Positions 13,858 to 41,026 are shown, counted from the stretch's first letter. The stretch is DNA of 64,000 nucleotides from Lentisphaeria bacterium UBA4640 (GCA_002405835.1 DHMO01000042.1:16036-80035), one strand, 5' to 3'. A program made the numbers and translations. Notes: generated by a model from the letters alone, not told the origin.

Positions 13858-13870
13858 GGTTCATGAAAGG

Positions 13871-14710: not shown

Positions 14711-14783
14711 TTTTTTCCTCTATGCGGATTTGTTTCACCGCGTTTATCGTGTATATTGCTCTATATTAACATAGGTGCGTTTT

Positions 14784-15860
14784 ATGAAAAGTCAACTGGA
14801 AAATGAACTTGCGCTTGCGCGCGGGCTCATAAATGAATTTATAACGGATGATCCGTTTCCGTCGCAGATCCGTCCGGAGGCGCTGCGCAAGGCTGTGCGG
14901 CTCTATCCGATGCGGGGGGGCAAACGGCTTCGTCCGGTTCTCGCGCTCTGGTCCTGCGGCGCGGTCGGCGGCGATCCGGTGCGTGCGCTCAACGCGGCCG
15001 CCGCGTGCGAAATCTTCCATAACTGGACCCTCGTTCATGATGACATTATCGACTGTGACGAGGTGCGGCGCGGAAAGCCGACCTGTCACATGGAACTGCG
15101 GAAGGAGGGCTCAGCGCGGTTCGGGCTGCTTCCCGGCCGTGCGGAAAAATACGGAACGGATTTTGCCATTCTGACCGGAGACGTTCAGCAGGCGTGGGCT
15201 TCGGATGTTCTGCTGCGCTCGACCGACCGTGGCGTTTCCGCTGAAACCGCGCTTGCAATGGCGCGGAGAATGCAGTCTTTTCTCAACCGGGAGCTCATTT
15301 CCGGCGAAGCGCTGGATGTTGAATTTGAGTACCGCAAGGTGCTTCCGCCGAAAGCGGAGGTGATTGACATGATCCGCGGCAAGACGGGGGCTCTGCTCGC
15401 GTTTTCCGCCGAATGCGGCGCGATGGTGGGACTCGATACGCCCGACTGGACCGCAAAGCCGGCTGCCGCGCTTGCGGAGTTCGCTTCGGAACTCGGATAT
15501 GCATTCCAGCTCTGCGACGACCTGCTCGGCGTTTACGGCGACGAGGCGACGTTCGGCAAACCGCTCTGCTCGGATTTCCGCGAGGGCAAGCCGACCGTTC
15601 TTTACCTGGAAGCTCTGGAGCGTCTGACCGAATCCGGACGCGCCGAACTGGCGGCGCTGATGAAGCGGCCGGCGTATACGGAGGCGGACATTGCGAAAAT
15701 CCGCACTCTGCTGGAAGAATGCGGCGCGCGTGCGGCGGTTGTCCGTGCGGCGGAGGAGTCGTCGGATAAGGCAATGGCGAATCTCTCTTCGCTTCCCGAA
15801 AACAAATACCGTTCTCTGCTGGAAGATCTGGCGGAGGACCTGCTGAAACGAAATGTCTGA
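14784..15860 (+). CDS. Polyprenyl (geranylgeranyl/farnesyl) diphosphate synthase family protein
   Basis: The first Asp-rich motif is LVHDDIIDCDEVRRG and the second is CDDLLGVYGD. The track ORF begins at a GTG at 14775; the ATG at 14784 (MKSQLENE) is the more likely start. Confidence 0.85.
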   Translation: MKSQLENELALARGLINEFITDDPFPSQIRPEALRKAVRLYPMRGGKRLRPVLALWSCGAVGGDPVRALNAAAACEIFHNWTLVHDDIIDCDEVRRGKPTCHMELRKEGSARFGLLPGRAEKYGTDFAILTGDVQQAWASDVLLRSTDRGVSAETALAMARRMQSFLNRELISGEALDVEFEYRKVLPPKAEVIDMIRGKTGALLAFSAECGAMVGLDTPDWTAKPAAALAEFASELGYAFQLCDDLLGVYGDEATFGKPLCSDFREGKPTVLYLEALERLTESGRAELAALMKRPAYTEADIAKIRTLLEECGARAAVVRAAEESSDKAMANLSSLPENKYRSLLEDLAEDLLKRNV

Positions 15861-15884
15861 CCTTAAAATACAGGAGAAACAAAC

Positions 15885-16763
15885 ATGGCACACAAAAGAG
15901 TTGAATTCATGGGCTGGAAGAACTGCATTGAGATCTCCAGCGGCAAGCTGAAACTGATCGTTGCGACGGAGATCGGACCCCGTATCGTGGGCGCGTTCTT
16001 TGACGGCTCCGACAACCTTTTCCATATCTTCCCGGAAACGGCGGGACAGACCGGCGGCGACGAGTGGAACAACTACGGCGGACACCGTCTCTGGCACTCT
16101 CCCGAGGACAAGATCCGCACGCAGACCATCGACAATTTCCCGGTTGACGTCAAGGACACCGCGAAGGGCATCACGCTTCATGCCGGTCCCGATGCGAACG
16201 CCGGAATCGAGAAGACGATTGAAATCATTCCGGTCAAGGGCGATTCCTTCAAGATTGTGCACACCCTGCGCAACTGCAACCGCTGGGACGTCGAGCTTGC
16301 CGCGTGGGGCATCACGGTGATGGCTCCGGGCGGAAAGGCGATTATTCCGATGCCGCAGGGCGATCCCGAAGCGCTGCTTCCGAACACTTTCATTTCCCTC
16401 TGGCCGTATGTGACGCTTTCCGACGGCAGAATCCGTTTCGGTTCCAAGTACACGCTTGTTCAGCAGGATTCCAAGTGCGGACCCGCCAAGATGGGCTGCA
16501 ACTGCGAAGACGGCTGGATCGCCTACCAGAACAAGGGAATCACCTTCATCAAGAAGTACGAGCACTTCGTCGATGCGGAGTATCCGGACAACGGATGCAG
16601 CGTCGAGTGCTACACCAATGACCAGATGCTGGAAATCGAAACCCTCAGCCCGCTCTATCAGCTCGCTTACGGGGAAGAGGTTCAGCACACGGAAGTCTGG
16701 AGTGCGCTCCGTCTCAGCAAGGAAATCCTTGATGAAGCGGATGCCGAACTGGTCTTCGGCTGA
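15885..16763 (+). CDS. Hypothetical protein, possibly with a galactose-mutarotase-like beta-sandwich fold
   Basis: 292-aa ORF with GC-rich codon usage, 24 nt after the polyprenyl synthase gene. The weak similarity pattern (GPRI..., GGHRLWHSPE) is only suggestive. Confidence 0.55.
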   Translation: MAHKRVEFMGWKNCIEISSGKLKLIVATEIGPRIVGAFFDGSDNLFHIFPETAGQTGGDEWNNYGGHRLWHSPEDKIRTQTIDNFPVDVKDTAKGITLHAGPDANAGIEKTIEIIPVKGDSFKIVHTLRNCNRWDVELAAWGITVMAPGGKAIIPMPQGDPEALLPNTFISLWPYVTLSDGRIRFGSKYTLVQQDSKCGPAKMGCNCEDGWIAYQNKGITFIKKYEHFVDAEYPDNGCSVECYTNDQMLEIETLSPLYQLAYGEEVQHTEVWSALRLSKEILDEADAELVFG

Positions 16764-17473
16764 TGCGTTTCCCCCTGTGTTATCTTCCGCTTCTGCTCTC
16801 CGTTCCGCTTGCCGGCGCGGAGAGCTGGAATGTGCGCATTGAACCGTCGCTTGACGGGGAAATCGTTGCAACTGCGGCTGCGGATGCGTCTGCGGCCGTG
16901 CGGGAGAAGACGGGGGACTGGCGCGGAATCGACCTTCCGGAAAAAGCTCCGGTCTGGGTCGCTTCCGTCTTTTTGAATGCGGACGGTTCGCTGAAAGAGT
17001 CCGTCCGTCTGCGTTCGGGACCGGGCGTGATTTATCCCGCATATCATTACAGCCGTCCGGAAGGTCCGGAGAAGGTCCGGATTCTGGAACGGGCGTATGA
17101 CGGCGCCTGGCTCCGGATTGCTCCGCTGCGCGGTCTGCGCGGGTATGTGCACAGCCGCTTTTTCCGGGAATCCGTCGAACATTCCACGCCCTCCGTTCCG
17201 GTGAAACCGGATGAGAAGATCCGGCGCGACAATTATCTTATGACCGTGGAAGGCATCCCGGTCCGCCTTTCGGAACCGGTCGGTTCCGCCTCATATGAAC
17301 TGATACTGGAAATCAACGGCAAGAAACTTCCGATCGGCTATCTGCTTTCGCCCCGTCTGAATCTGAACCTGTGGGAAAACCGCATGGTGAGGATCACCGG
17401 ACGCCAGCTGTGGGTGAAAGGCATCCGGCGCCCGTTCTGGGAGATAGAGAAAGTTTCGCCGTCCTGGAAATAA
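16763..17473 (+). CDS. Secreted hypothetical protein with an SH3b-like segment
   Basis: N-terminal signal-like peptide MRFPLCYLPLLLSVPLAGAES. The SH3b-like stretch is VRLRSGPGVIYPAYHY...RILERAYDGAWLRI. The start overlaps the upstream stop (TGATG). Confidence 0.55.
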   Translation: MRFPLCYLPLLLSVPLAGAESWNVRIEPSLDGEIVATAAADASAAVREKTGDWRGIDLPEKAPVWVASVFLNADGSLKESVRLRSGPGVIYPAYHYSRPEGPEKVRILERAYDGAWLRIAPLRGLRGYVHSRFFRESVEHSTPSVPVKPDEKIRRDNYLMTVEGIPVRLSEPVGSASYELILEINGKKLPIGYLLSPRLNLNLWENRMVRITGRQLWVKGIRRPFWEIEKVSPSWK

Positions 17474-18538
17474 TCAGAACGGCAGTTCCTGCTGATCATC
17501 GGTGATTTTGCGCGCTCCGCGCCGCACTCCGTTCGGATAGAGCGGGGGAGTGAGACCGAACATGCGCCACGATTTATCCGAAACGATACGTCCCTGCGGC
17601 GTGCGCATCATGTATCCTTCCTGAATCAGATATGGTTCATAGACGTCTTCAATGGTATCCGCTTCTTCGCCGACTGCGACGGAGAGAGAGTTCAGACCGA
17701 CCGGTCCGCCTTTGAAATTGACCATGATCATCTCAAGAATGCGTTTGTCCATCTCGTCGAGTCCGCTGTCGTCGATGTCGAGCATAGTGAGCGCGGCCGC
17801 GGCGAGTTCCTGCGTGATGTGTCCTTTGCCTTTGACCTGGGCGAAGTCACGGGTCCAGCGGAGGAGATTGTTTGCGATTCGCGGAGTTCCGCGGCTGCGG
17901 CGTGCGATTTCAAACGCGCCTTCCGGGTCGATTTTGACTTTGAGAATTCCGGCGGACCGGAGAACAATGTCGCGCAGTTCCTCCGGACTGTAGTAGTCGA
18001 GACGGAGGGAGAGTTCGAAGCGGGAGCGCAGCGGAGCCGAGAGAAGCCCCTGGCGCGTGGTTGCGCCGATGAGCGTGAATTCGGGAATGGTCAGCCGCAC
18101 GGAGCGCGCACCGGGTCCCTGGTCGATCATGATGTCGATGAAGAAATCCTCCATGGCGCTGTAGAGATACTCTTCGACGGCGGTGTTCAGACGGTGGATT
18201 TCGTCGATGAACAGGATGTCGCCTTTTTCGAGCGAAGTGAGCAGTCCCGCGAGATCGCCGGGTTTTTCGATGACGGGGCCGCTGGAGGTTTTGATGTTCG
18301 CGCCTTTTTCATTGGCGATGATGTAGGCGAGCGTGGTCTTGCCGAGTCCCGGAGGACCGCTGAGGAGGAGATGTCCGAGCGGTTCGGAGCGGTTTTTCGC
18401 CGCGGCGACGTAGATTTCCAGACGGTCCTTCGTCTTGGTCTGTCCGGGAAAAGAGCTGAAGTTCTGCGGGCGCAGAGTGGTTTCCGCCTCTGCATCCTTC
18501 TTATTTAACGTGGAAGTTATGAATCTTTCGTTTTCCAT
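17474..18538 (-). CDS. ruvB: Holliday junction branch migration helicase RuvB
   Basis: Segments LRPQNF..F.GQ, the Walker [15 protein letters not shown], and [10 protein letters not shown]. 354 aa. Confidence 0.95.
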
Positions 18539-18632
18539 GACTTTAAATCCTGCTTTCCTGATGTATATTACAAGTGAGAGTATACTTTAACTTTTCAAAA
18601 AAGCAAACGGAAAAACAATTAAAGGAGCGAAA

Positions 18633-20624
18633 ATGTCGGATTTGAAATCTCTGAAGCTCGCGGCGGACACGGTCCGCCTGCTTTCTGCGGACGGCGTGCA
18701 GAAGGCAAAATCGGGTCACCCGGGCATGCCGATGGGAACGGCGGACATCGCCTTCACCCTCTGGTATAAATTCCTCAAACACAACCCCAAGAACCCGAAC
18801 TGGCTCGGACGTGACCGCTTTGTCCTTTCCGCCGGACACGGTTCTATGCTCATCTACAGCCTGCTTCATCTCTTCGGCTACGGGCTGACCATGGATGATC
18901 TCAAGAACTTCCGCCAGTGGGACAGCCTTACCCCGGGACATCCGGAATACGGGCACACCAAAGGCGTCGAAGTCACGACCGGACCGCTCGGAACCGGTTT
19001 CGCTTCCGCCGTCGGAATGGCCGCGGCCGCCAAGCACTTCGCCGCAGTGACCGGACTTGACAAGACGGGACTTCTTGACCGCAAAGTCTACATCGTCGCC
19101 GGGGACGGCTGCATGATGGAAGGCATCTCGCACGAAGCAGCTTCCTTCGCCGGACACCTCAAGCTCGACAATCTCGTCCTTTTCTATGACGACAACAGTA
19201 TCAGCATCGAAGGGTCCACCGGAATCGCCTTTACTGAAAATGTCGCCAAACGCTTTGAAGCCTACGGCTGGCGCACGCTCAAAATCGAAAACGCCAACGA
19301 TACGGAACAGGTTCTCAAGGGCATCGAAGCCGCGCAGGTTTCCGACGGCCGGCCGACGTTTGTCGACTGCCGCACGGTGATCGGTTTCGGTTCTCCCTCG
19401 AAGGCCGGTTCCTGCAAATCCCACGGCGAGCCGCTCGGCACGGATGATCTCGCCGGAGCCAAAGCCGCTCTCGGTTTTCCCCCGGACGCTTTCTACGTTC
19501 CTCAGGAAGTCCGCGACATGGTCGGCGCCCGCGTCGCAGAGCTCGAAAAAGAGGCTGCCGCATGGGATGCCGAATTCCAAAAATTCGTGGAAGCGAACCC
19601 GGACAAGGCGCAGCTCATCTCCGACATGCTCTCTCTGAAGGTTCCCGAAAACCTGCTGGAGCAGCTTCTTGCAGTTGCCCCGGTTGACAAGCCGGTTGCC
19701 ACGCGCGCATCGAGCGGCGCAATCCTTCAGAAGGTTGCGGAACAGGTTCCCGCCCTCTTCGGCGGAGCGGCCGACCTCGCGCCTTCGACGAAAACCGACA
19801 TCAAGAACGGCGGCGACTTCGCCCCCGAAAATTATGCCGGACGCAACATCCACTTCGGCGTCCGCGAACTTGCAATGAGCGTCATCGGAAACGGCATGGC
19901 GGTCTATGGCGGTCACATTCCGTATACATCGACCTTCTTCGTCTTCTCCGACTTCATGAAGCCGGGCATCCGCCTTGCCGCTCTCCAGAAGATCCGCTCC
20001 ATCTACGTCTTCACGCACGATTCCTTCTATGTCGGCGAAGACGGTCCGACGCATGAACCGATCGAGCAGCTTGCCATGCTCCGCACGATTCCGGGCATGA
20101 CGGTCATCCGTCCGGCGGAAGCGCATGAAGTTGCGCACGCCTGGGCTTATGCGGCGAACAGCAAGACTCCGGTTGCGCTGATTCTGACCCGTCAGGATCT
20201 CGCCCCGTACGATGCGGAGACCGCCGCGAAGGTTGATGTCACGAAGGGCGCCTATGTGGTTTCGGAAGATGCCGCGTATGACACGATTCTGATCGCGACC
20301 GGATCGGAAGTCAACACCGCGCTCGGCGCCGCGCACATCCTGCGGGAAAGCGGACGCCGCATCCGTGTTGTTTCGATGCCTTCCCGCGAGCTCTTCCTCG
20401 CCCAGAGCGCGGAATACCGCGAAAGCGTCATTCCGTCCGCCTGTGAGAAACGTGTGACGATTGAAGCCGCCAGCACGTTCGGCTGGGAGAAATTTGCCGG
20501 CGACAAAGGACTCTGCATCGGTCTTGATCACTTCGGCGCCTCCGCTCCGTACAAGGTTCTTGCGGAGAAGTTCGGTTTCACACCGGAAGCCGTTGCAAAG
20601 AAGATTGCGGAATTCTTCGCATAA
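18633..20624 (+). CDS. tkt: Transketolase
   Basis: 663 aa. Segments: SGHPGMPMG, GHGSMLIYSLLHL, the TPP motif GDGCMMEGISHEA, and THDSFYVGEDGPTHEPIEQL. Confidence 0.95.
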   Translation: MSDLKSLKLAADTVRLLSADGVQKAKSGHPGMPMGTADIAFTLWYKFLKHNPKNPNWLGRDRFVLSAGHGSMLIYSLLHLFGYGLTMDDLKNFRQWDSLTPGHPEYGHTKGVEVTTGPLGTGFASAVGMAAAAKHFAAVTGLDKTGLLDRKVYIVAGDGCMMEGISHEAASFAGHLKLDNLVLFYDDNSISIEGSTGIAFTENVAKRFEAYGWRTLKIENANDTEQVLKGIEAAQVSDGRPTFVDCRTVIGFGSPSKAGSCKSHGEPLGTDDLAGAKAALGFPPDAFYVPQEVRDMVGARVAELEKEAAAWDAEFQKFVEANPDKAQLISDMLSLKVPENLLEQLLAVAPVDKPVATRASSGAILQKVAEQVPALFGGAADLAPSTKTDIKNGGDFAPENYAGRNIHFGVRELAMSVIGNGMAVYGGHIPYTSTFFVFSDFMKPGIRLAALQKIRSIYVFTHDSFYVGEDGPTHEPIEQLAMLRTIPGMTVIRPAEAHEVAHAWAYAANSKTPVALILTRQDLAPYDAETAAKVDVTKGAYVVSEDAAYDTILIATGSEVNTALGAAHILRESGRRIRVVSMPSRELFLAQSAEYRESVIPSACEKRVTIEAASTFGWEKFAGDKGLCIGLDHFGASAPYKVLAEKFGFTPEAVAKKIAEFFA

Positions 20625-20643
20625 TCCGGCTTGACGGAACTGT

Positions 20644-20691
20644 AAAAAACGCGTTTCCCTGTGCACAAATGCCGGGAAACGCGTTTTTTTT
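20644..20691. terminator. Bidirectional rho-independent terminator after tkt
   Basis: Perfect 16-bp stem aaaaaacgcgtttccc (20644-20659) / gggaaacgcgtttttt (20674-20689), with a 14-nt loop. It has an A-tract 5' and a T-tract 3'. Confidence 0.7.
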
Positions 20692-20724
20692 CAACTTTTT
20701 TCGGTTTTTTTTCATTTTACCCCC

Positions 20725-20753
20725 TTCACAAAATCGCGTTTATGGTGCATAAT
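20725..20753 (+). promoter_or_regulatory. Candidate cspA promoter with a ~80-nt leader
   Basis: TTCACA (20725-20730), a 17-nt spacer, then CATAAT (20748-20753). A long 5' UTR is typical of cold-shock genes. Confidence 0.35.
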
Positions 20754-20836
20754 ATATAAGGCGACACGCCGGAGCATGAAAAAGCCCGTTCCGGAGGAGT
20801 GCCGCGTTAAACATTTCAAGGAGAGGTCTTTTCAGA

Positions 20837-21046
20837 ATGGACAAGGAAAAAGGTAAAGTCAAGTGGTTTAACAATGCCAAAGGATTCGGTTTCATCGAGC
20901 GTGAAGCGGGCGGCGATATTTTCGTTCACTACAGCTCCATCAAGGTCGACGGCTACCGGACTCTGAAGGAAGGACAGCAGGTCGAGTTCATCGTCTCTCA
21001 GGGAGACAAAGGTCTCCAGGCGGACGAAGTCGTCGCCCTGTCGTGA
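20837..21046 (+). CDS. cspA: Cold-shock protein (CspA family)
   Basis: 69 aa. The RNP1 and RNP2 motifs are KGFGFI and DIFVHYS. Confidence 0.95.
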
Positions 21047-22216
21047 TCACTTCCGGTGTTTCGCCTGAAACACCGCGCAGAACAGAAGGGCGGCGGAGGA
21101 AACAATGCCGCCTGCGCATCCGATCCATGCAAGGGAAAGATGCGTGCTCACCATTCCCCCGAACAGACTTCCCGTCGCAATGCCGAAATTGAAGATCCCG
21201 GAGAAGATTGACATTGCCACGGCCGTTCCGTTTTCCGGTGTGCTCCGGATCACTTCCGCCTGGCAGGTGACATTGAATGCCGTTCCGGCAATTCCCCACA
21301 CCGCACACAGCGCAAGAAGCATCCACAGGTGAGCTGCAGCGGGATAAAGCAGAAAGAGCGCTGCAGCAGTGAAGACCAGTGTCAGCAGCAGAAATGCGCG
21401 CGGCATCCGGTCGTAAAAACGGGAAAACAGCCAGCTTCCGGCGATTCCGGCACCTCCGAACAGCACCAGTATCCAGGTGATGAGCCCGTCGGGCTGATGT
21501 GCAATCTGTTTGAGAAACGGTTCTATGTAGCTGTATGCTGTGTAATACGCTGTCGCAAAGAGCGCGGAGAGCACGTAAATCCCGATGAGAAACGGGTTGT
21601 GCAGGAGCGCGGGCAGGTCGCGGACCGAGAACGAACCGCTGCCCGGAATCTTCGGTGCGGCAAACTGCAGATAGAGCAGAATTGCAAATGCAATGATTCC
21701 GACGCTCAGGAAAGTCATTCTCCAGCCGATCTGAAGTCCCACAAGCCGTCCGACGGGGAGCCCGACGATGATTGCAATCGAACTTCCAGTCACAATCATT
21801 CCGAGTGCGAGCGAACGGAATTTTTCCGGAACGAACCGCACCGCCATCGGCGAGGCGATTGACCAGAAGACAGAGTGAGCGCACGCGACGCCGATTCGCG
21901 ACGCCATCAGCATCCAGTAGTTTCCCGAGAAGGCGGAGAGCAGCTGACATCCGCCGAACAGCGCGAGCGTGCCGATCAGCAGACGTTTCATTTCCATCCG
22001 GCAGACGAGGAGCATCAGGGGAAGAGAGAGCAGCATGACCACCCACGCGTAGACGGAAATCAGCATTCCCGCCCGCGCTTCCGTAATCCTGAAATCCTCC
22101 GCAATATCCGTCAGCAACCCGATCGGCATGAATTCCGATGTGTTCAGAATGAATGTGGATGCCGTCATTCCGAGCAGCGGGAGCCATTCTTGGATAGACA
22201 GCCTGTCTTCAGGCAT
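21047..22216 (-). CDS. MFS transporter (sugar-efflux SotB/YdeA-like)
   Basis: 389 aa with 12 hydrophobic segments. The N-terminus EFMPIGLL..IA.DF and the loop motif RMEMKRLLIG are typical of this MFS subgroup. Confidence 0.8.
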   Translation of the reverse strand: MPEDRLSIQEWLPLLGMTASTFILNTSEFMPIGLLTDIAEDFRITEARAGMLISVYAWVVMLLSLPLMLLVCRMEMKRLLIGTLALFGGCQLLSAFSGNYWMLMASRIGVACAHSVFWSIASPMAVRFVPEKFRSLALGMIVTGSSIAIIVGLPVGRLVGLQIGWRMTFLSVGIIAFAILLYLQFAAPKIPGSGSFSVRDLPALLHNPFLIGIYVLSALFATAYYTAYSYIEPFLKQIAHQPDGLITWILVLFGGAGIAGSWLFSRFYDRMPRAFLLLTLVFTAAALFLLYPAAAHLWMLLALCAVWGIAGTAFNVTCQAEVIRSTPENGTAVAMSIFSGIFNFGIATGSLFGGMVSTHLSLAWIGCAGGIVSSAALLFCAVFQAKHRK

Positions 22217-31693: not shown

Positions 31694-31726
31694 AAAAAAG
31701 CGGAGGTGCTGCCTCCGCTTTTTTTT
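31694..31726. terminator. Bidirectional rho-independent terminator between glyQS and rsmG
   Basis: aaaaaa-gcggagg-tgctg-cctccgc-tttttttt: a 7-bp GC stem flanked by A- and T-tracts. Confidence 0.6.
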
Positions 31727-31744: not shown

Positions 31745-32407
31745 TTACTTTTTCCTGTGAACCGGAGGGAGGGTCATGAAAAGACGGGTGCCGGCGTTGT
31801 CGGGGAGCTCAAAGGTGTCGGTGCAGCGGAAACGGAGTGCAAGTTTCTGAAGCTCCGGCTTCTCTTTGTCGCGCTGGTCCGGAGTGCGGTAGACGTAGAG
31901 CAGCGCATCCTTGCGGAGAAGTCCGGAAACTTCCTTGATCAGTTTCATGGAATCCGAAACTGCCCGCGCGGTGACAATCTCAAAATGATGTCCGTAATCC
32001 TCCGATGATGCAAGCTCGTTCGCCCGGGCGTGGAGAGCTTCCAGATTGTCAAGTCCCATCGCTTCCGCCGCGCGATTCACAAAATCAATTTTCTTGCGGG
32101 TCGAATCGACAGAGGTAATCTGAAGATCCGGAAAAGCGGCGGCAAGAGGAAGCGAGGGAAAACCCGCGCCGCAGCCGACGTCGCAAAGATTGAATTTTCC
32201 CTTCAGATACGGGGCAATCGAAACGGAATCCGCAATGTGCTTGCTCCAGAAATCCTCCGGCGGAATACGGGTCAGATTCATGGTCTTGTTCGTTTCGTAA
32301 AGGATATCTTCAAAAATCGAACAGGCTTTCATGAAGTCGTCAAAACGGGTCTCCGGGACAAAGCGTTTCAGAAAGGCGAGGCATTCGGCGGACGGTGTGG
32401 TGCTCAT
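31745..32407 (-). CDS. rsmG: 16S rRNA (guanine527-N7)-methyltransferase
   Basis: 220 aa. Segments: NLTRI...FW.KHI.DS and the SAM motif DVGCGAGFPSLPLA. Confidence 0.9.
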   Translation of the reverse strand: MSTTPSAECLAFLKRFVPETRFDDFMKACSIFEDILYETNKTMNLTRIPPEDFWSKHIADSVSIAPYLKGKFNLCDVGCGAGFPSLPLAAAFPDLQITSVDSTRKKIDFVNRAAEAMGLDNLEALHARANELASSEDYGHHFEIVTARAVSDSMKLIKEVSGLLRKDALLYVYRTPDQRDKEKPELQKLALRFRCTDTFELPDNAGTRLFMTLPPVHRKK

Positions 32408-32973
32408 ATTTTGTCAGCTCCGGTAAGATTCAGAATAAAGGTTGCAAGTGAAACAAGTGCGAAAAGAAACAGGAAAACCGGCATTGCCGGACGGTATTTC
32501 GTCACGGAAAGGCGGATGATTTCCCGCGTGAGGTGGGGTTTGCCGGAAATGAAGATGCCGATCGTTCCGAAAATCAGACAGAACGTCGCGAAGACGGCGG
32601 AGAACATGGTCGGGCAGGCAAACGATTCTTTCAGGTAGAAGTGCGCCGTCAGGATCATGAAGCCGCCGATCGCGCGCGAAAACAGGTGGTCGAGCGCGCA
32701 ATAAGCGAGAATGATCAGCAGAATCGCAAGCGGCAGCAGATATTTATGCAGCGATTCGGGGAGAATCGGCATGGCGTTCGGGATGCACCAGAGCAGGTCG
32801 ATGATTCCGAGAATGGCGCCGGGGAGCGCAGCCCGCGGAAGTTTTTCCCGTTTCTCCAGGTTTTCTTTATTTACTTTCAGCAGCAGGATTCCTCCCGCGA
32901 TGCACAGAACGGCGCAGAGCGGAAGAAGAATCAGATACATGAGACGGGGATTGAAAAATTCAAACATGGTCAT
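32404..32973 (-). CDS. Polytopic membrane protein of unknown function (last accessory gene of the Tad-like operon)
   Basis: 189 aa with about 5-6 hydrophobic segments. It overlaps its neighbours by 4 nt on both sides. There is no GGGD(V/A)K-type prepilin-peptidase motif. Confidence 0.6.
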   Translation of the reverse strand: MTMFEFFNPRLMYLILLPLCAVLCIAGGILLLKVNKENLEKREKLPRAALPGAILGIIDLLWCIPNAMPILPESLHKYLLPLAILLIILAYCALDHLFSRAIGGFMILTAHFYLKESFACPTMFSAVFATFCLIFGTIGIFISGKPHLTREIIRLSVTKYRPAMPVFLFLFALVSLATFILNLTGADKI

Positions 32974-34292
32974 TCCTCGCGTTTCAGGGGGGCTGTGGAT
33001 TCGATGTCTTCGCGCTTGTAGGAGTAAGTCACGCCCGGTTCCGGTTCAAAAATGACGCTTTTGTTTGACTGGGAAATAAGGCGTCCGTGGATCTGTTCGC
33101 CGGATTTGAGTTTCAGCAGGGTGTTCGCAATCCACATTTTCTGGGTGTCCAGACGTTTGATTTCTCCTTTGGCAACGTTGACTTTGACAATTTTCCGGTC
33201 GGGGCGCGCATGTTTGTGCACAAGCTGAAGCGTGTGCATTCCGGGCTTCAGACCGCGGACGGAGAATACTTTGGAGTTGTCCGAATTGGCGTCGGGGATG
33301 GTTGCACCGAGTTCCTTGCCGTCGAGATAGACCGTGATTCCGGCGGGGTAGGTGGCGAAGTCGATGCCGCCGGTGTTGACCTTCATGGAGAATGTATGCG
33401 AAAGTTTTTCGCCGGCGGGGAGATCGAGCTGGACGGTTTCGGTGTCATAGCCGCTGCGGGAGGCGGTGACGGTGTACTTGCCGACCGGGAGGTTTTTGAC
33501 GGTGACGGGCGCGGTTCCGTAGTCTTTGCCGTTGATGCGGATTGAGGCGTTGACCGGCTCGGTTGTGATGGAGAGCGCGCCGGGAAGCGGATTCAGTTTT
33601 ACATTGACTGCCGTTGTTTTGTCGCGGTGGATTGTGACGGCCTGCTGGTAGGGCGTGTAGCCGCTGCTCTGGATTTTCAGCGTGTATCTGCCCTGTTCGT
33701 GCGAGCCGGAGTAGGGGGTGCGGCCGACGTCCTGTCCGTCAAGGTAGACGATTGCGGCTTTCGGGGCGGATTTGACGGAGAGTGTGCCGACGTTTGACTG
33801 AAGGACGGTTTGAACCAGGCGCGGGCGGGCGTCGGAGATTTCCCATTCGACATTCCGCTGTGCATAGCCGCTGAGCTTCAGTGTTGCGGTGTACTTCCCG
33901 ACGGGCAGATCCCGGACGCTGAACGGGGTCACACCGAGTTCTTTGCCGTCCATGATTACGGCGGCGCCCGCGGGTGTTGTCTGGAAGAGGACGGAGGCGG
34001 TCTGCTGTTTCAGCGTTTCCGTGATGTGAAGTTTCTGGCGGGGCTCCAGTCTGATGATTTTCCAGACGGTTTCATAGCCCGGTTTGGAGAGTTTGAGCAG
34101 GTGTGTTCCGGCGGGAATGCGGCAGCCGAACGGGGTTTTACCCTGCGGTTTGCCGAGAAGCACGACTTCCGCATCCTGCGGCTTCGAGTTGATGCGGAGT
34201 ATCGCGCGCGGATCTTCCTGTTTTTTTTCTCCGCATCCTGCGAGGAGCAGGGCGAGTGCGGAAACAAGGGCGAAAAGAGAATATTTTTTCAT
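32970..34292 (-). CDS. Lipoprotein with five tandem PEGA domains
   Basis: The signal peptide plus lipobox is MKKYSLFALVSALALLLAGC. There are five ~68-aa repeats of PEGA type, for example TTPAGAAVIMDGKELGVTPFSVRDLPVGKYTATLKLSGY and TEPVNASIRINGKDYGTAPVTVKNLPVGKYTVTASRSGY. Confidence 0.8.
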   Translation of the reverse strand: MKKYSLFALVSALALLLAGCGEKKQEDPRAILRINSKPQDAEVVLLGKPQGKTPFGCRIPAGTHLLKLSKPGYETVWKIIRLEPRQKLHITETLKQQTASVLFQTTPAGAAVIMDGKELGVTPFSVRDLPVGKYTATLKLSGYAQRNVEWEISDARPRLVQTVLQSNVGTLSVKSAPKAAIVYLDGQDVGRTPYSGSHEQGRYTLKIQSSGYTPYQQAVTIHRDKTTAVNVKLNPLPGALSITTEPVNASIRINGKDYGTAPVTVKNLPVGKYTVTASRSGYDTETVQLDLPAGEKLSHTFSMKVNTGGIDFATYPAGITVYLDGKELGATIPDANSDNSKVFSVRGLKPGMHTLQLVHKHARPDRKIVKVNVAKGEIKRLDTQKMWIANTLLKLKSGEQIHGRLISQSNKSVIFEPEPGVTYSYKREDIESTAPLKREE

Positions 34293-34296
34293 GAGG

Positions 34297-35637
34297 TCAC
34301 TTCCTTCTCAGCTGCCTGTCGAATTCGAGCTTGTAGGTTTTGAGTTTGGGATATGCTTTGCTGTCGGGTCCGAGCAGATCCATGGCTTTCTGACATTCGG
34401 CGGAGGCGCGGGCGTAGTCGCGCAGTTTGTAGAACTGCTGAATATTGAATTCAAGGTCGCGGCGGAGTTTTTCGAATTTCTGTTCCGCTTCAGCGAGATG
34501 TTTGCGGGCCACATCCCATTCCTGCGGTTTGGGGGAGAACTGCTCGAAGTATTCCATGGCGAGTTTGTAGCGGGAGATGGCCTGACGGAGGTTTTCCGGT
34601 TTCGCCTGATAGGATTCGTAAAGGTCCTCAGCCTTGCGGAAGGTCAGATGCGCATATTTTTGCATCTCTTCGACATTCATGGAGACGGAGATCAGACCGT
34701 TGTTGTCGGAGAAGCGGTTGATGGCGTTTTCGATGGCTTCAAAGGAGCTTTTTGCGAAATTGTTGTGAACGGTGATGGTGTTCTGTTTATTGTTCTGGAC
34801 AATGGTCAGGGTGCGGGTTTCGTCGGTATCCGTGGTGACGACATCATCAGAATCCTGCTGGAGCTTCATGAAGTCGGTGGCGAGAACGGCGTCGCGCAGC
34901 TCCTGCATTGCCTGCTCGGGAACGGCGGGAATCGTCTTCTGAAAATGGCGGTTGTATTTGAGATCGTCGAGCGTGAAATGCGCGGTGTTGTTCTCGACGG
35001 TCAGAGCAAAACGGAAGATGTTGCCCGGTTCGGTTTTCGTGCGCTGGTAGTTCAGGACGAAATCCGGTTTCTTGACAGCCGCTGCACGGGAGTTCTCCGC
35101 TTTGGGTTCGACCATGTTGAGTTTGACGAAGACTGCGAGGACGATCAGCGCGAGTGCGAAGACAAGGACCGGATAGAGAAGTTTGAATTTTTTCTGTGCC
35201 GGAGCGGCCCCCTTCTTTTCCTCCTCTTTCTTTTTGTCTTTGGAAAAGAGCGTTTCGAGGGATTTCAGGTCGACGGACGGTTTGGACGGCTGTTCCGGGG
35301 CGGGAGTTGGAGCCGGGGCGGACGCTTCGGTTTTCGAGTCGGGGGTGACGAGCCGTTCGGCGAAAATGAGCGTCTGGTCGCCGATGACAATGGTGTCGCC
35401 GTCCGCAAGAACGGTTTCGGCGGAAATCTGCTTGCCGTTGAGGCGGGTTCCGTTGGTGCTGCCGAGATCAAGGATGGACCATGCGGAGCCGTTGAAGGTT
35501 ATTTTCGCATGATAGCGCGAAACGCCGGTGACGAGAAGCTGGACGTCGTTGTCCTCTTCGCGTCCGACGGATACGCCGGGCGGTGTGAGTTCCATGCTGG
35601 TTCCCGCTCTGGGGCCGTTCAGAAAAAAGAGTTTCAT
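34297..35637 (-). CDS. FHA-domain / single-TM / periplasmic-domain protein
   Basis: 446 aa.
- The N-terminal FHA carries all hallmark residues: VGRE...VSRYHA...LGSTNGTRLNG...GDTIVIG.
- An Ala/Pro-rich linker and a Lys/Glu patch follow.
- The TM segment is LLYPVLVFALALIVLAVFV.
- A ~270-aa C-terminal domain ends in helical, TPR-like repeats. Confidence 0.8.
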   Translation of the reverse strand: MKLFFLNGPRAGTSMELTPPGVSVGREEDNDVQLLVTGVSRYHAKITFNGSAWSILDLGSTNGTRLNGKQISAETVLADGDTIVIGDQTLIFAERLVTPDSKTEASAPAPTPAPEQPSKPSVDLKSLETLFSKDKKKEEEKKGAAPAQKKFKLLYPVLVFALALIVLAVFVKLNMVEPKAENSRAAAVKKPDFVLNYQRTKTEPGNIFRFALTVENNTAHFTLDDLKYNRHFQKTIPAVPEQAMQELRDAVLATDFMKLQQDSDDVVTTDTDETRTLTIVQNNKQNTITVHNNFAKSSFEAIENAINRFSDNNGLISVSMNVEEMQKYAHLTFRKAEDLYESYQAKPENLRQAISRYKLAMEYFEQFSPKPQEWDVARKHLAEAEQKFEKLRRDLEFNIQQFYKLRDYARASAECQKAMDLLGPDSKAYPKLKTYKLEFDRQLRRK

Positions 35638-36062
35638 GATTTGTCTCCGAATAAGTTCGTTGGTGCGGGAGCTGTTCCGGCGAGTCCGGACGGACGGGCG
35701 TTCAGTTCCGGAAGCAGTTCCACATCCAGATCAATATAATCTCCGGTCTGCGTGCCGGTCCGTGCGAGGGTCCCGGCGGGCAGTTCGATGGTGAGCACGG
35801 CTGCGCGGCAGCCTTCACAGAGCCGCCAGGGCGGAAAGGCTGTGCGCTGATGAACAATCCGGTTGTTGCCGGAAAGAAACAGAAGGTCGATGGGCTGCGA
35901 CATGAAGAGCGAATGAACGGCACTGCAGTGTTCAAAGACAAGGGCGTCGAAGTCGTCCGAGAAGCGGCGTCCGATCATGCCGCGCATCCGCGTGAAGAAG
36001 GCGCGCGCGCGGCGCGGTTCCTTCGCGAGAACAGTTTTGCGTGTGACATTGTGCAGAATCAT
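35634..36062 (-). CDS. DUF192 (COG1430) family protein
   Basis: 142 aa. RMRGMIGR...LVFEHCSAVHSLFMSQPIDLLFL...ELPAG matches the DUF192 pattern as I know it. It overlaps the downstream FHA gene by 4 nt. Confidence 0.7.
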   Translation of the reverse strand: MILHNVTRKTVLAKEPRRARAFFTRMRGMIGRRFSDDFDALVFEHCSAVHSLFMSQPIDLLFLSGNNRIVHQRTAFPPWRLCEGCRAAVLTIELPAGTLARTGTQTGDYIDLDVELLPELNARPSGLAGTAPAPTNLFGDKS

Positions 36063-36065
36063 AGG

Positions 36066-36950
36066 TCAGCGCATCGCTTTCATTGCCTGGAGAATTACGG
36101 GACCGAGCATCAGCAGGAAGACGGCGGGGAAGATGAAGAGAACGACCGGCATGAGGAGTTTTACCGGAGCTTCGCCGGCGAGTTTTTCCGCGAGGGCGAA
36201 ACGCTTGTTGCGGAGCTGATCGCTCTGAATGCGGAGGAGTCCGCCGATGCTGATACCGAGTTCATCCGCCTGGACGATGGCGTTCAGGACGGCGGAAAGT
36301 TCGGGCTGCTGGGTGCGCTGCGCCATGTCGCGGAGCGCGGTCTGGCGTTTTTTGCCGAGCTGAATTTCCTGAAGCGCGCGCATGAACTCTTCGCCGAGGG
36401 GGTCGACCGGGCGCCGCGCGAGGATGTCCTTGAGTGCGGAAAGAAAGTCTTTTCCGGCTTCGACGGAAAGTGTGAGCAGGTCGAGAAGGTTCGGGAGGGC
36501 GCGGAGAATCGAGAAATGGCGTTTGCTTACCATGTTGCGCAGCCAGGCACCGGGATAGATGTAGAACATGGCGAGGAGGACGAGTCCGTAAAGCAGTTTG
36601 CCCGCGGTTCCGCAGAGAATCATGACGATGACGCCGAGTCCGAGCAGCAGAATGCGCGCGGCGAGGAAACGTTCCGCGGAAAGCGTCTGGTCGTATCCCG
36701 CCATCATGAGCTGGTTTGAGGTCTTGCGGAGGGAGTCCTGAAAGAGCTGCGCGTGCATGAGCGGAAGAAGGTTGCCTGTCAGCGGAAGCACGATTTTGAT
36801 GAGAACCGGAACCGGCTTGCGGATTTCGAGCGGTTCGCCCGCGTTCTTGTCGAATTCAATGGAGGAGAGGGCGCCGATGATGAGACAGAGCACCGCGGTG
36901 CAGGAAATTCCGGCGCAGAGCGCGGCGGCGGTTGTCAGAAGCAGATCCAT
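36066..36950 (-). CDS. tadC: Tad/type II secretion system F-family platform protein (TadC-like)
   Basis: 294 aa. It has an N-terminal TM segment, a cytoplasmic T2SSF domain (LPNLLDLLTLSVEAGKDFLSAL), and two C-terminal TM segments. Confidence 0.8.
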   Translation of the reverse strand: MDLLLTTAAALCAGISCTAVLCLIIGALSSIEFDKNAGEPLEIRKPVPVLIKIVLPLTGNLLPLMHAQLFQDSLRKTSNQLMMAGYDQTLSAERFLAARILLLGLGVIVMILCGTAGKLLYGLVLLAMFYIYPGAWLRNMVSKRHFSILRALPNLLDLLTLSVEAGKDFLSALKDILARRPVDPLGEEFMRALQEIQLGKKRQTALRDMAQRTQQPELSAVLNAIVQADELGISIGGLLRIQSDQLRNKRFALAEKLAGEAPVKLLMPVVLFIFPAVFLLMLGPVILQAMKAMR

Positions 36951-36965
36951 GAGCCGTTGTCCTCC

Positions 36966-37856
36966 TTAAATGTCGATGTTGGTGATTTTGCGGATGACGA
37001 GAAAGCCGGTCACAACCAGTGCAATCGCGGCGAACAGCAGAAGAATTCCGAGCGGGGAATTCAGAAAAGCGTTGACCATGTCGGGAGCGATGTACGCCAT
37101 TGCGGCGAGGAGCAGGAACGGCATGGCGCCGATGATGATCGCCTGAAGCCTCCCCTGGGCGGTCAGCGCGGAAACTTTGCGGGTGATGCGGAGACGTTCC
37201 CGGATGACGTAGGCGAGACGTTCCAGAACGTTTGTCAGTTCGCCGCCTGTCTGACGCGCGGTGATGACGGCGATGGCGACCAGTTCAAAATCTTTGGAGC
37301 CGACGCGTTTGGACATTTTCGAGAAGGCTTCATCGAAGCTCACGCCGAGTCGCAGCTCCTGTGTCAGGAGATTGAATTCGAAGGAGATCGGGTGGCGGTT
37401 GGCTTTTGCGATTTCATCGAGCGCCTGCGGAAGGCTGAATCCCGCCTTGAGCGAGCCGCTGATGGAGAGAAGCGCATCTTCGAGCTGTTCATTGAATTTC
37501 GCGAGACGCTGGTTTTTGAGGAAACGCAGGTAGAAGCGCGGCGCAGGGAAGGCGACGATAAGCCCGACTGTCCCGAAAAGGAAAATTTTTGCAGCGGAGA
37601 GCGTTCCTGTGAAGGCGGCGAACGCGATTCCGAGGAATGCGCCGAGTCCGGCGAATGCGAGGCTCAGATAAAAAATTTTCTCCGGCGGCATCTGAAGCAG
37701 AATGTCGTCGTACTGCACGGAGGTTTCTTCGATGTACCGCTCCTTGTAGCGGTTGGAGGCTTCGGTGATGAAGTCGACAATGACAATGGTCGCGCAGGTG
37801 ACGGCGAGCGCGGAGCAGAGGCATGCGATCAGAGTCAGGTTGGTCAGCAGTTCCAT
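36966..37856 (-). CDS. tadB: Tad/type II secretion system F-family platform protein (TadB-like)
   Basis: 296 aa. It has a T2SSF domain (LEDALLSISGSLKAGFSLPQAL...ITARQTGGELT) flanked by TM segments. Confidence 0.8.
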   Translation of the reverse strand: MELLTNLTLIACLCSALAVTCATIVIVDFITEASNRYKERYIEETSVQYDDILLQMPPEKIFYLSLAFAGLGAFLGIAFAAFTGTLSAAKIFLFGTVGLIVAFPAPRFYLRFLKNQRLAKFNEQLEDALLSISGSLKAGFSLPQALDEIAKANRHPISFEFNLLTQELRLGVSFDEAFSKMSKRVGSKDFELVAIAVITARQTGGELTNVLERLAYVIRERLRITRKVSALTAQGRLQAIIIGAMPFLLLAAMAYIAPDMVNAFLNSPLGILLLFAAIALVVTGFLVIRKITNIDI

Positions 37857-39574
37857 CAGCGATCCTCTCCTTTCAGCATTCCTCGGGTGAAGATTTCGAG
37901 GTCGAGTTTGAGCCCGGCGCGCTTGATGTCCTCCATGAACGAAGGCAGATTGCCGGAGGGAACGTGGCGCCCTGTCATTTTGCCGTTGGCGTCCCAGCCG
38001 TCCTGATGATAGGTGAAGATATCCTGCATGGTGATCATATCGCCTTCCATGCGGGTGATTTCAGAGATGTTTGTGACTTTTCGCGTGCCGTCCTTTTCGC
38101 GGTTGATCTGAACGATGATTGCAATAGCGGAGGCGATCTGTTCGCGGATTGCGCGGAGCGGCAGGTCGAATCCCGCCATGAGGACGAGTGTTTCGAGACG
38201 CGAAAGAGCGTCGCGCGGAGTGTTCGCGTGGATGGTGGTGAGCGAGCCGTCGTGGCCGGTGTTCATTGCCTGAAGCATGTCGAGCGCTTCACCGCCGCGG
38301 CACTCGCCGATGACGATGCGGTCTGGACGCATTCGCAGGGAGTTGCGGACGAGGTCGCGGATATTGACTTCGCCCTTGCCTTCGATGTTTGCGGGACGCG
38401 ATTCGAGACGGACCACATGGTCCTGGCGCAGCTGGAGTTCCGCCGCGTCTTCAATGGTGATGATGCGTTCGGTATCGGGCAGGAACGAGCTCAGAATGTT
38501 GAGCAGCGTCGTTTTTCCGGAACCGGTTCCGCCGGAGATGATGATATTTTTGCGGAGTTTGACGCAGACGTTCAGGAAATCCGCCATTTCATAAGAGATG
38601 GAGCCGAAACGGACAAGGTCGTCGATCTGCAGCGGGTTCCGCGAGAATTTACGGATGGTGATTGTCGGCCCGACAAGCGAGAGCGGCGGGATGATTGCGT
38701 TTACACGGGAACCGTCCTGGAGACGCGCGTCGACCATCGGGGAGCTTTCATCGATGCGGCGTCCGAGGGGCGAGACGATGCGTTCGATTGCCGCGATGAC
38801 CTGGTGATTGTCGGCAAACGCCATATCGGTTTTATGCAGAACGCCTTTGGTTTCGACGTAGACGCTGTCGGGTCCGTTCACCATGATTTCGGAGATTTCC
38901 GGCATGGCGATGAGGTCTTCAAGCGGTCCGAGCCCGATGGCTTCATGAACGAGTTCGCGTTCAATCTTGTCGGTTGTCACGCCCGCGGGGAGGGTGACGG
39001 TGAGCTCGGAGATGATTTCATGAATGGTGTCTTTCGCCTTTTTCTCAAGATCTTCCTGCGCGGTTCCTGCGAGGACCATGCGTTTGAGGTTCAGGCGTTT
39101 GAGCAGTTCGATGTGTGCAAGACGTTTGATTTCCTGTACGAACGGGCGTGCGGCAAGCGGAATTCCGGAGACTGCGAGAATCGGAATTTCATGTTTGCCC
39201 TGATTGTTCAGCGGACGCGGCGCGGGTGTGTGCGGAGGTGGTGCGGGAACGGGTTTCGGCGGTTCCGGCTTCTGCGCTTCGCGGTCTTCTGTGCCGAGTG
39301 CGAGGATTTCCGCTTCGCCGATGCGGACGCGGCTGCCGGGGCGGATGTGAACGGTCGTGTCATGAAACGCTTCGCCGTCGACTTCAATTCCTCCGCCGAG
39401 ATCGGCGATTTTGAGGTCGGTATCGGTTGCGATGAACTGGCAGTGACGCGGAACCACGCCCGGCGCATTGAGCGTCAGGTGGCTTGCGGGGCTTGAACCG
39501 ACCCGGTAGGTTCCCGGAACGAGGCGGGCTTTGATTTCGTCGCGCCCGGGAATTCTGATCAGGATTTCATACAT
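37856..39574 (-). CDS. cpaF: CpaF/TadA-family secretion ATPase with an N-terminal FHA-like domain and a Pro-rich linker
   Basis: 572 aa.
- aa 1-95 form an FHA-like beta-sandwich pattern: YRVGSS..SHLTL....VPRHCQF......[14 protein letters not shown]...[17 protein letters not shown].
- aa 96-125 are [19 protein letters not shown].
- The ATPase core has Walker [13 protein letters not shown] (nt about 38510-38533), [10 protein letters not shown] and the His box [12 protein letters not shown]. Confidence 0.9.
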
Positions 39575-39577
39575 GAA

Positions 39578-40372
39578 TCAGTACCTCAGACGCGTGTTTT
39601 TCTGTTCCCGTTCCTTCATATAGCGGTTGACGTTCTGCTGGAGGTATTTCCAGTTGACGCTCTGCAGGTCGGTGGCGACGGCGGCGTCTTCATAGTTGCG
39701 CAGGCTCATCTGAATGCGTCCCTTCTGGGAAGCGAAGATGATCATTTCAACCTCTTTGGGGGAGAGTTCGAGAGTAACGGTCGAATATCCGCGGGCGATG
39801 CGTTTGCCTTCCTGCACGCCGTAATCGGTTCCGGTTGCGATGACGCGCACTTTCTGAAGGATGGTGAGCGTGATGGTGTCGAGCGTGGAGTCGCCGCGCA
39901 TGTCGGGGAACTTGAAGGTTCCGATGAGATCGACGTAGTTGTTCGGCTGGACGAGTCCGGAAACGGATGCGGTCTGGTCGACGGCGATGGAGACTGCGCG
40001 GTATCCGGGCTGAATGAGGCGGGTGAGTCCCTCTTTGCCGCCTGAGACGGCGTTCTGCAGGTCATTCCACTGCAGGATTTTTCCGCGCTGGATGGAGAGC
40101 TGCGCTTTGCGGTTGATGATGAGGCTCTTCTGGCTGTATGGAATATGACGGCTGGAGGAGAGCTGCGAGGCGTACATTTTGATTTTTGCGCCGCGGATGG
40201 CGTCTTCGGTGATCGGTTCGTTTTCTGCGATGTCTTTCACGAGCTGAATGACGGCGACTTCGGTGGTTGCCGCCTGGATTTTTTTCTTTTCCTGGTTGAT
40301 CTGCTGGAATGTGAGCATGAAAGCCATCACTCCGAAAAACACTGCCGCCAAAAGTAAAAGTTTCTGCTTCAT
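39578..40372 (-). CDS. cpaB: CpaB/RcpC-family Flp pilus assembly protein
   Basis: I trimmed the track ORF 39578..40435 to the ATG at 40372 (MKQKLLLLAAVFFGVMAFML...). It has an N-terminal TM anchor, a SAF-like region, and an RcpC-like core (GYRAVSIAVDQTASVSGLVQPNNYVDLI). Confidence 0.8.
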   Translation of the reverse strand: MKQKLLLLAAVFFGVMAFMLTFQQINQEKKKIQAATTEVAVIQLVKDIAENEPITEDAIRGAKIKMYASQLSSSRHIPYSQKSLIINRKAQLSIQRGKILQWNDLQNAVSGGKEGLTRLIQPGYRAVSIAVDQTASVSGLVQPNNYVDLIGTFKFPDMRGDSTLDTITLTILQKVRVIATGTDYGVQEGKRIARGYSTVTLELSPKEVEMIIFASQKGRIQMSLRNYEDAAVATDLQSVNWKYLQQNVNRYMKEREQKNTRLRY

Positions 40373-40407
40373 CGTCAAATCCCTGTTAGAAGTTAGTCTC
40401 AGGGGAG

Positions 40408-40435
40408 AATATAATTGAACAAAAGCAAAAATCAA
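40408..40435 (-). promoter_or_regulatory. Candidate sigma70 promoter of the Tad-like operon
   Basis: Minus-strand TTGATT (40435-40430), a 16-nt spacer, then TATATT (40413-40408). It sits between the fldA terminator and the cpaB start. Confidence 0.35.
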
Positions 40436-40465
40436 GGCGGGAAAAATTGTTTTTATGAGAGGAAT

Positions 40466-40504
40466 ATAAAAAATCTCCCGGAAATTGCAGATTTTCCGGG
40501 AGAT
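40466..40504 (-). terminator. Rho-independent terminator of the DUF3793-fldA operon
   Basis: On the minus strand, a 12-bp stem (atctcccggaaa / tttccgggagat) is followed by TTTTTTAT. It lies 28 nt after the fldA stop. Confidence 0.6.
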
Positions 40505-40531: not shown

Positions 40532-41026
40532 TTATTTCATTTCTGCGCGGAGCTGATCGCACCACTTTGCGATGCGGTCGGCGGTCTTGTCCGGCTCGTT
40601 CGTGTCGTCGAGTGCGAGCCCGCAGAAGAAACCGTCCTGATCCGCCGTTGACGCTGTATGCGTGTAGCCTGCGGAGGAGGTTTTGCCGATGAGCGCTGCT
40701 CCGCGTTCTTCCAGTTTGTCGGCGAGGGTGCGCATGGAATCGACGTAGGAGTCGGCGAATCCGCACTGGTCGCCCATGGCGAAGACGGCGGCTTTTTTGC
40801 CTTTGAGGTCGATGCCGTCCAGCATCTGAACTCCGGCGAACCAGTCGTCCTGCAGGTCTCCGACGCCCCAGGTGGAAGTTCCGAGGATAAGCAGATCCGC
40901 CTGGAAATCGGCAGGGGCTGCGTTTGCGACATTAATCGCCGTTGTTCCGAAGTTTGCCGCGATGATGTTCGCGGCGGCTTCCGTGCATCCGGTTGTGCTT
41001 CCGAAGATTACTTTTACGTCAGACAT
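40532..41026 (-). CDS. fldA: Long-chain flavodoxin
   Basis: 164 aa. Segments: KVIFGSTTGCTE (FMN phosphate loop) and LGTSTWGVGDLQDDW. Confidence 0.9.
   Translation of the reverse strand: MSDVKVIFGSTTGCTEAAANIIAANFGTTAINVANAAPADFQADLLILGTSTWGVGDLQDDWFAGVQMLDGIDLKGKKAAVFAMGDQCGFADSYVDSMRTLADKLEERGAALIGKTSSAGYTHTASTADQDGFFCGLALDDTNEPDKTADRIAKWCDQLRAEMK

Follow-up and report, generated by a model that had tools for sequence, protein, structure and literature searches.

Bacteria use tight adherence (Tad) pili for adhesion and surface sensing, and predatory ones also for killing; knowledge of the accessory and regulatory parts of these pili comes from only a few proteobacterial models. In the described mechanism, a rotary ATPase works under a TadB/TadC platform and the filament passes through a ring of CpaB. 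Here we describe a Tad-like locus (positions 31745-40504) in a 64,000-nt stretch of DNA from Lentisphaeria bacterium UBA4640 (GCA_002405835.1 DHMO01000042.1:16036-80035), called the window below. Orthologues of CpaF, TadB, TadC, and CpaB/RcpC are common to this locus and to the canonical Tad/Flp systems (Aggregatibacter tad, Caulobacter cpa, and Pseudomonas rcp-tad). Unlike those systems, however, it carries no flp, tadV/cpaA, rcpA/cpaC, tadZ/cpaE, tadD, rcpB/cpaD, or tadE/F/G in cis; instead, cpaB is followed directly by cpaF, CpaB has a short C-terminus, and there are extra genes for a DUF192 protein, a protein joining an FHA domain to a transmembrane helix (FHA-TM), and a PEGA lipoprotein (genes g1 to g9; Table 1). 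The reading that we favor, with some reserve, is that these genes specify the inner-membrane and periplasmic core of an FHA-rich, split Tad (type IVc) filament machine. At the level of sequence, the identity of this core is shown by homology, and the fixed partnership of the DUF192, FHA-TM, and PEGA proteins by its conservation in bacteria of the Planctomycetes-Verrucomicrobia-Chlamydiae (PVC) group.

By analogy, the closest known kind of system is the split, FHA-rich Kil apparatus of Myxococcus xanthus, a Tad-like machine that our initial annotation had named as containing an FHA protein. The published description (Seef et al. 2021, PMC8460266) agrees with this: KilF is an FHA-CpaF protein, as is g2, and a PrgH-like FHA protein (MXAN_4649) is encoded directly beside KilH/KilG/KilB. 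By type and gene position, the latter may be likened to g6, whose gene has only the DUF192 gene between it and tadC. The Kil system has additional FHA/TPR proteins, its genes lie in two separate clusters with a TadG-like gene among the pilins, and, like the locus described here, it is devoid of TadZ, TadD, and RcpB. There are also clear differences. The short secretin KilC and the peptidase KilA adjoin KilF, whereas neither is encoded in cis here in any lineage; a DUF192 protein or a multi-PEGA lipoprotein is not reported for Kil; and the FHA scaffold described here adds a transmembrane (TM) helix and a periplasmic beta-platform/TPR-like domain. Moreover, the host in our case, a member of the PVC group, lives anaerobically in the gut, and a predatory function is not implied. 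Dispersed Tad genes near FHA and TPR genes are also known from Bdellovibrio bacteriovorus, in which the peptidase comes from PilD.

A second comparison is with YscD/EscD/PrgH of the type III secretion system (T3SS) and TagH/Fha1 of the type VI secretion system (T6SS), which share the topology of g6: a cytoplasmic FHA domain, one TM helix, and a periplasmic domain. The likeness to YscD extends to a Pfam Yop-YscD_cpl match above cutoff, and gating of an envelope machine by a phosphothreonine (pThr) reader is the logic of Fha1/TagH in the T6SS. However, the periplasmic domain of g6 is without ring-building motifs, no T3SS or T6SS genes lie nearby, and its FHA domain retains the canonical pThr-binding residues that YscD-class FHA domains are reported to lack. 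What is new at this locus is the fixed trio of DUF192 protein, FHA-TM protein, and PEGA lipoprotein, the presence of an intact pThr pocket in the FHA-TM protein only, and a secretin that is nowhere found in cis. The trio also provides a first concrete machine context for DUF192 and multi-PEGA lipoproteins.

Conservation of a seven-gene cassette

The order of the seven genes from cpaB to the PEGA lipoprotein gene (g1 to g7) is kept in loci L003, L006, L007, L008, L083/84, L085, and L086 of our gene-neighborhood comparison, in each case between unrelated flanks. These loci represent distinct Lentisphaerota lineages, with g6 identity falling from 92% to 29% and CpaF identity ranging from 60 to 98%, and since many diverged genomes share this gene order, its conservation is more than chance. 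The association of FHA-TM, PEGA, and DUF192 genes with cpaF that the initial annotation had drawn from one locus is kept in related genomes, although the nine-gene system that it had proposed was too wide: the seven genes from CpaB to PEGA are conserved together, while the last two genes of the block (g8 and rsmG) form a separate pair.

Named homologs of the cassette proteins belong to Lentisphaeria, Victivallales, or Victivallaceae, and near-identical DNA is present in the human-gut metagenome-assembled genome (MAG) UMGS1182. Hosts of the cassette thus include human-gut Victivallales, whose surface appendages are essentially unstudied, and a literature search returned no paper linking Lentisphaerae to Tad pili. 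The cassette appears to be a widespread, PVC-specific version of Tad, as its signature domain, the periplasmic part of g6, is alone found in about 400 clusters: a profile of this domain matched 628 proteins at E<=1e-3 in 1.84 billion representatives and 400 at E<=1e-10, the latter being clusters at 50% identity. Among the 150 best matches, the domain is C-terminal in proteins of mostly 420-650 aa, and some shorter proteins are probably partial. A contig search with the g6 alignment matched the generic FHA motif, so that 74 of 80 loci encoded unrelated FHA proteins (Solirubrobacterales and others) without Tad neighbors and only L003-L008 were informative.

Could the locus be the non-functional remnant of a Tad locus in decay, left behind once the genes for pilin, secretin, and peptidase were lost? 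The sole point in favor of such decay is that the canonical partners are not encoded in cis. Against it, the ratio of nonsynonymous to synonymous substitution rates (dN/dS) between the window and L003 is 0-0.14 for each of the seven cassette genes, which are under strong purifying selection; furthermore, catalytic motifs are intact, synteny is strict among lineages at only 29-68% identity, and the architecture of the g6 family is kept among the best matches to its 400 clusters. Decay is effectively refuted.

The pairing of g8 with rsmG is a conserved partnership outside the Tad system, and rsmG is a housekeeping gene. The pair adjoins the cassette in some genomes; in L086, a g8-like gene and a GidB gene lie 4 kb upstream of the cassette, and in L085 and L007 the pair is absent nearby. 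Because g8 and rsmG form a pair of their own, we take the unit to be a seven-gene cassette, although in the window g8 is probably co-transcribed with it, given a 4-nt overlap with g7. Genes for membrane proteins of the g8 type (180-190 aa) were always found immediately upstream of rsmG and overlapping it, even away from the cassette (window 31745-32973; L086 4242-5455; L083 12828-14050), and the invariant residues of g8 include E43, K44, R47, N66, D95, R100, H111, and K145. The possibility that g8 is a hidden A24 prepilin peptidase was rejected: it is without GxGD, D95 is its sole invariant Asp (four homologs), and it travels with rsmG.

The motor and its partner proteins

Domains were assigned by Pfam and NCBIfam profile searches, which agree with the gene identities of the initial annotation and match g8 to no family. 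Three hallmarks of Tad pili are present, namely a CpaF/TadA-type ATPase, a TadB/TadC platform pair, and an RcpC/CpaB alignment protein. The last of these, g1, combines an N-terminal TM helix with SAF/RcpC periplasmic domains, scores 154 bits against the TIGR03177 CpaB equivalog (cutoff 71), and matches the RcpC dodecamer 9gzr (E 4e-7), which leads us to predict a periplasmic conduit or alignment ring. The motor, g2, matches the solved Caulobacter CpaF 9e24 over residues 100-559 (E 3.7e-128), with Walker A (GGTGSGKTT) and His box readable in the sequence, and g3 and g4 are two adjoining single-domain T2SSF platform proteins, TadB and TadC.

In g2, the ATPase is preceded by an FHA-like domain and a Pro-rich disordered linker, an FHA-CpaF fusion that is kept in 115 homologs and is a recognized class III architecture. 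The FHA-like N-terminus noted in the initial annotation stands as a weak match to FHA (E 1e-5), and Yop-YscD_cpl also matches there; its pocket does not, as the 115 homologs fail to preserve the R, S, and N of canonical FHA domains, and we regard the FHA domain of CpaF, on its residues, as degenerate. The second FHA domain, in g6, differs in this respect. Since GR, SRxH, and TNG do not vary among 24 homologs, g6 is predicted to have an intact canonical pThr pocket. With one FHA pocket that, judging from its residues, is clearly functional and another that is degenerate, a model of phosphorylation-gated assembly is directly testable.

The bitopic protein g6 consists of the FHA domain (residues 1-95), a Pro-rich disordered linker (99-150), a TM helix (151-175), and a periplasmic side that AlphaFold2 models (pLDDT 82 and 87) resolve into a six-stranded sheet with two helices (~190-312) and a TPR-like helical domain (~316-446). 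Foldseek searches with the full-length model gave FHA matches only, and the periplasmic domain was then modeled alone; its best matches in the PDB were Mago nashi (E 1e-4) and, weakly, TPR proteins. As a separate observation, g6 is the fastest-evolving gene of the cassette between the window (34297-35637) and L003 (10001-11335), with 92% amino acid identity, dN of 0.036, and dS of 0.32, compared with 97-100% identity and dS of ~0.16-0.22 for its neighbors; local recombination or relaxed linker regions are possible causes.

Gene g7 directly follows g6 in every locus examined, including L005, L091, and L092, where motor genes lie elsewhere. Its product has four PEGA stretches that score independently, a fifth PEGA-like unit (~307-385) seen by eye, and a small C-terminal domain of roughly 55 aa, also seen by eye. 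In L005 (5081-7918), the FHA-TM and PEGA genes are on their own, surrounded by genes of metabolism, and in L092 (8180-12723) they are accompanied by TadB/TadC only, without a DUF192 gene. The system is thus modular, the FHA-TM/PEGA pair staying together apart from the motor. The DUF192 protein, g5, has no signal peptide and is therefore cytoplasmic; its gene sits between tadC and the FHA-TM gene in L003, L006-8, L083-86, and the remote L090. A literature search for DUF192 in the context of pili found nothing relevant.

Pilin genes and the route across the envelope

The initial annotation reported that a pilin, a peptidase, a secretin, TadZ, and TadD were missing in cis, and this holds both for the window and for at least eight diverged cassette loci. 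Inside the block there is neither room nor an open reading frame (ORF) for a pilin, peptidase, secretin, or TadZ. Our first, narrow pilin regular expressions would miss pilins of the GQxxxE type and were replaced with a generalized motif, validated on loci L091, L093, and L094, whose pilins it detects. With this motif, no pilin was found in six frames of the 64 kb window or in the 5-10 kb around eight cassette loci, and no ORF in the 930 nt left open ahead of cpaB in L085 is plausible as a pilin. Peptidase_A24 occurs in no annotated neighborhood of the window or of any locus examined, no Secretin or BON family match was obtained in any locus examined, and the flanks contain no ParA/MinD-like (TadZ/CpaE) gene, with CpaB directly followed by CpaF in all loci. 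TadD is likewise absent in cis, here and in the cassette loci examined.

Pilin genes of the relevant kind do exist elsewhere. In L091, a Verrucomicrobiae MAG reached through the remote g6-family protein P0316, a pilin operon lies 8 kb from the g6-g7 pair (10001-12675) and encodes, in order, a small protein, flp65, flp84, tadE, TadG (PF13400), pseudopilin-like proteins of 172 and 241, RcpC, and FHA-CpaF, the pilin leaders being of the G|Q(A/S)(M/L)xE type. A search with the L091 TadG led to homologs in Victivallales and Victivallaceae: L093 (Victivallales) has stand-alone genes for flp68, flp80 (KG|QAMVEY), tadE, and TadG among metabolic genes, and L094 (Victivallaceae) has tadE, TadG, and two pseudopilins in a similar stand-alone setting. 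The pilin modules of L091 and L093 are homologous (Flp 40-42%, TadG 31-33%). We also observed a gene for a 192-aa FHA protein next to one for an AAA ATPase in L093 (891-1469), 8 kb from its pilin module.

Pilins in cis in L091 and stand-alone pilin modules in Victivallales together make a split machine of the Tad/Kil type the most likely arrangement. They weaken the implication of the initial annotation that a Tad motor works here without pilins; viewing one locus probably created this "motor without pilin" as an artefact. A repurposed motor, in which CpaF/TadB/TadC would drive something other than a type IV pilin filament, would explain why no pilin-like ORF turned up in the window or around the cassette in eight lineages, even though the scan does recover the pilins of L091, L093, and L094. 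Nevertheless, we consider this very unlikely, as L091 combines the same accessory family with pilins in cis, Victivallales have homologous pilin modules, all known CpaF/TadBC systems polymerize pilins, and CpaB is a filament conduit.

If the locus is the core of a split Tad machine, a CpaF hexamer would dock under the TadB/TadC platform and polymerize Flp-type pilins, with filament subunits (Flp, TadE, and TadG-like) coming from another locus. The pilins would be cleaved by an unlinked prepilin peptidase supplied, like the secretin if there is one, in trans; both kinds of component are known to occur as "loners", and one copy can serve more than one system. The filament would cross the periplasm via the CpaB ring. 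Across the inner membrane, g6 may serve as an alignment or scaffold subunit, a functional analogue of GspL/PilN and YscD/PrgH, whose pThr pocket could read a Ser/Thr-kinase signal and gate assembly in the manner of Fha1/TagH in the T6SS; its FHA target might be the Pro/Thr-rich linkers of CpaF or of g6. The periplasmic TPR-like end of g6 and the elongated PEGA lipoprotein could tie the motor to the outer membrane, while the DUF192 protein, in the cytoplasm, is perhaps a motor-associated factor.

Several points weigh against this picture. Although pilins are in cis in L091, no secretin, A24 peptidase, or TadZ was seen there or in the rest of ~12 loci. A trans pilin module was seen only in other Victivallales MAGs, and we infer its co-occurrence with the cassette in the same genome. 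Foldseek returned no pilus, secretion, or T3SS component for the periplasmic domain of g6, and we propose the roles of DUF192, g6, and g7 from topology and fold. A Ser/Thr kinase is not consistently linked to the cassette, as Pkinase is found near L086 only and PP2C near L083 only. The former is a Ser/Thr kinase accompanied by a guanylate cyclase (L086 1889-4043), 5-7 kb upstream of the cassette, and the latter a GAF-SpoIIE (PP2C) phosphatase 7 kb downstream of it (L083 20656-21455). Finally, g1 appears, from its alignment, to be without the C-terminal beta-hairpin by which RcpC of P. aeruginosa contacts its secretin: the alignment with 9gzr stops at residue 229, and ~35 residues follow the D2 domain in g1 versus ~70 in RcpC.

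The short CpaB tail hints, on this alignment, at a different outer partner, and together with the lack of a secretin and TadZ in cis it raises the question of how, or whether, the filament crosses the outer membrane. Alternatively, then, the machine may be independent of a secretin, with the FHA-TM and PEGA proteins forming a new trans-envelope scaffold in place of secretin, pilotin, and TadZ, and the filament either staying in the periplasm, where an endopilus would work like a piston in secretion or contact-dependent delivery, or leaving by some other route. This alternative is unlikely but deserves weight. It would account for the same absences in every locus examined and for a tail too short for a secretin-binding hairpin; g6-g7 is, moreover, the most tightly linked unit of the system, and a lipoprotein with five Ig-like PEGA domains could reach across the periplasm. 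On the other hand, secretins are often encoded elsewhere or serve several systems, no outer-membrane pore is known to be formed by PEGA domains, the tail argument comes from an alignment rather than a structure, and the scaffold interactions are our own conjecture. In its broad form, that PVC bacteria (Lentisphaerota and some Verrucomicrobiota) build, in a diderm envelope of undescribed design, a type IV filament machine that is gated by a kinase and needs no secretin, the alternative strikes us as rather doubtful. We hold just as tentatively the corollary that FHA-TM, PEGA, and DUF192 proteins take the place of TadZ, the pilotin, the end of CpaB that binds the secretin, and perhaps even the secretin.

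Layout of the locus and its surroundings

All nine minus-strand ORFs at 31745-40372 were verified, and the tight junctions of the initial annotation proved correct in coordinates, overlaps, and gaps, with neighbors overlapping by 1-4 nt or standing no more than 15 nt apart (Table 1). Translation of cpaB starts from the ATG at 40372 rather than the TTG at 40435.

Table 1. Genes and flanking signals of the Tad-like locus, in positions counted from the first nucleotide of the window.
Feature	Coordinates	Strand	Evidence
g1, CpaB/RcpC	39578..40372	-	RcpC E 1.7e-26 (Pfam); TIGR03177
g2, class III CpaF/TadA motor ATPase	37856..39574	-	T2SSE E 2.3e-64; FHA E 1e-5
g3, TadB-type platform protein, 296 aa	36966..37856	-	T2SSF E 1.4e-19
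g4, TadC-type platform protein, 294 aa	36066..36950	-	T2SSF E 9.9e-13
g5, DUF192 protein	35634..36062	-	DUF192 E 8.3e-13
g6, bitopic FHA-TM-periplasmic protein	34297..35637	-	FHA E 1.9e-18; Yop-YscD_cpl 63.8 bits (cutoff 33.2)
g7, five-PEGA lipoprotein	32970..34292	-	PEGA E 2.5e-64; lipobox LLAGC
g8, polytopic membrane protein, 189 aa	32404..32973	-	No Pfam or NCBIfam match
g9, rsmG (16S rRNA m7G methyltransferase)	31745..32407	-	GidB E 1.3e-35
Upstream intrinsic terminator	40473..40504	-	12-bp stem (6 GC pairs) then TTTTTTATATT; found by scan
Candidate sigma-70-like promoter, TTGATT-16-TATATT	40408..40435	-	Consensus scan; 36 nt upstream of cpaB ATG
Downstream bidirectional intrinsic terminator	31694..31726	.	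GCGGAGG-cagca-CCTCCGC between A-run and T-run; read by eye

Both terminators that bracket the block in the initial annotation are in place. The upstream one closes a flavodoxin gene (40532-41026) and is the upstream boundary of the cassette. The downstream one (about 31694-31726) reads AAAAAAAAGCGGAGGcagcaCCTCCGCTTTTTT and is not in the list returned by the terminator scan, which likely missed it because the A and T runs pair, lengthen the stem, and consume the T-tail. Promoter-like sites in the region are no commoner than in shuffled sequence, and the candidate ahead of cpaB is weak evidence for a promoter.

Mobile-element-like genes follow the cassette in L085 (serine recombinase and DUF2924; 13379-15472) and in L007 (ParB-like, DUF4406, and DUF6291 genes; 15374-21258), which fits the variable flanks of the cassette. 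Matches of 800 aa of the P0136 type were set aside as the tandem-duplicated CpaF of a different, VWA-associated Tad-like system rather than the cassette. In another Tad-like variant, in L089 (10001-18072), the gene for an 832-aa protein with two tandem T2SSE ATPase domains precedes those for an uncharacterized protein of 353 aa, a VWA protein of 816 aa, TadB, and TadC, along with small pilin-like ORFs.

The remainder of the window is housekeeping DNA of a diderm (TrkAH, Skp, LpxD, Tkt, RuvB, Dxr, RseP, and GcpE), and we take the host to be diderm because LpxD and Skp are encoded in the window and LpxK adjoins L083. A 1360-aa ORF on the plus strand (4051-8133), with one fn3 domain and a weak FG-GAP match, lies in a low-GC stretch (~4001-8000; 38-45% GC versus ~56% in the rest of the window) and may encode a large surface protein gained horizontally.

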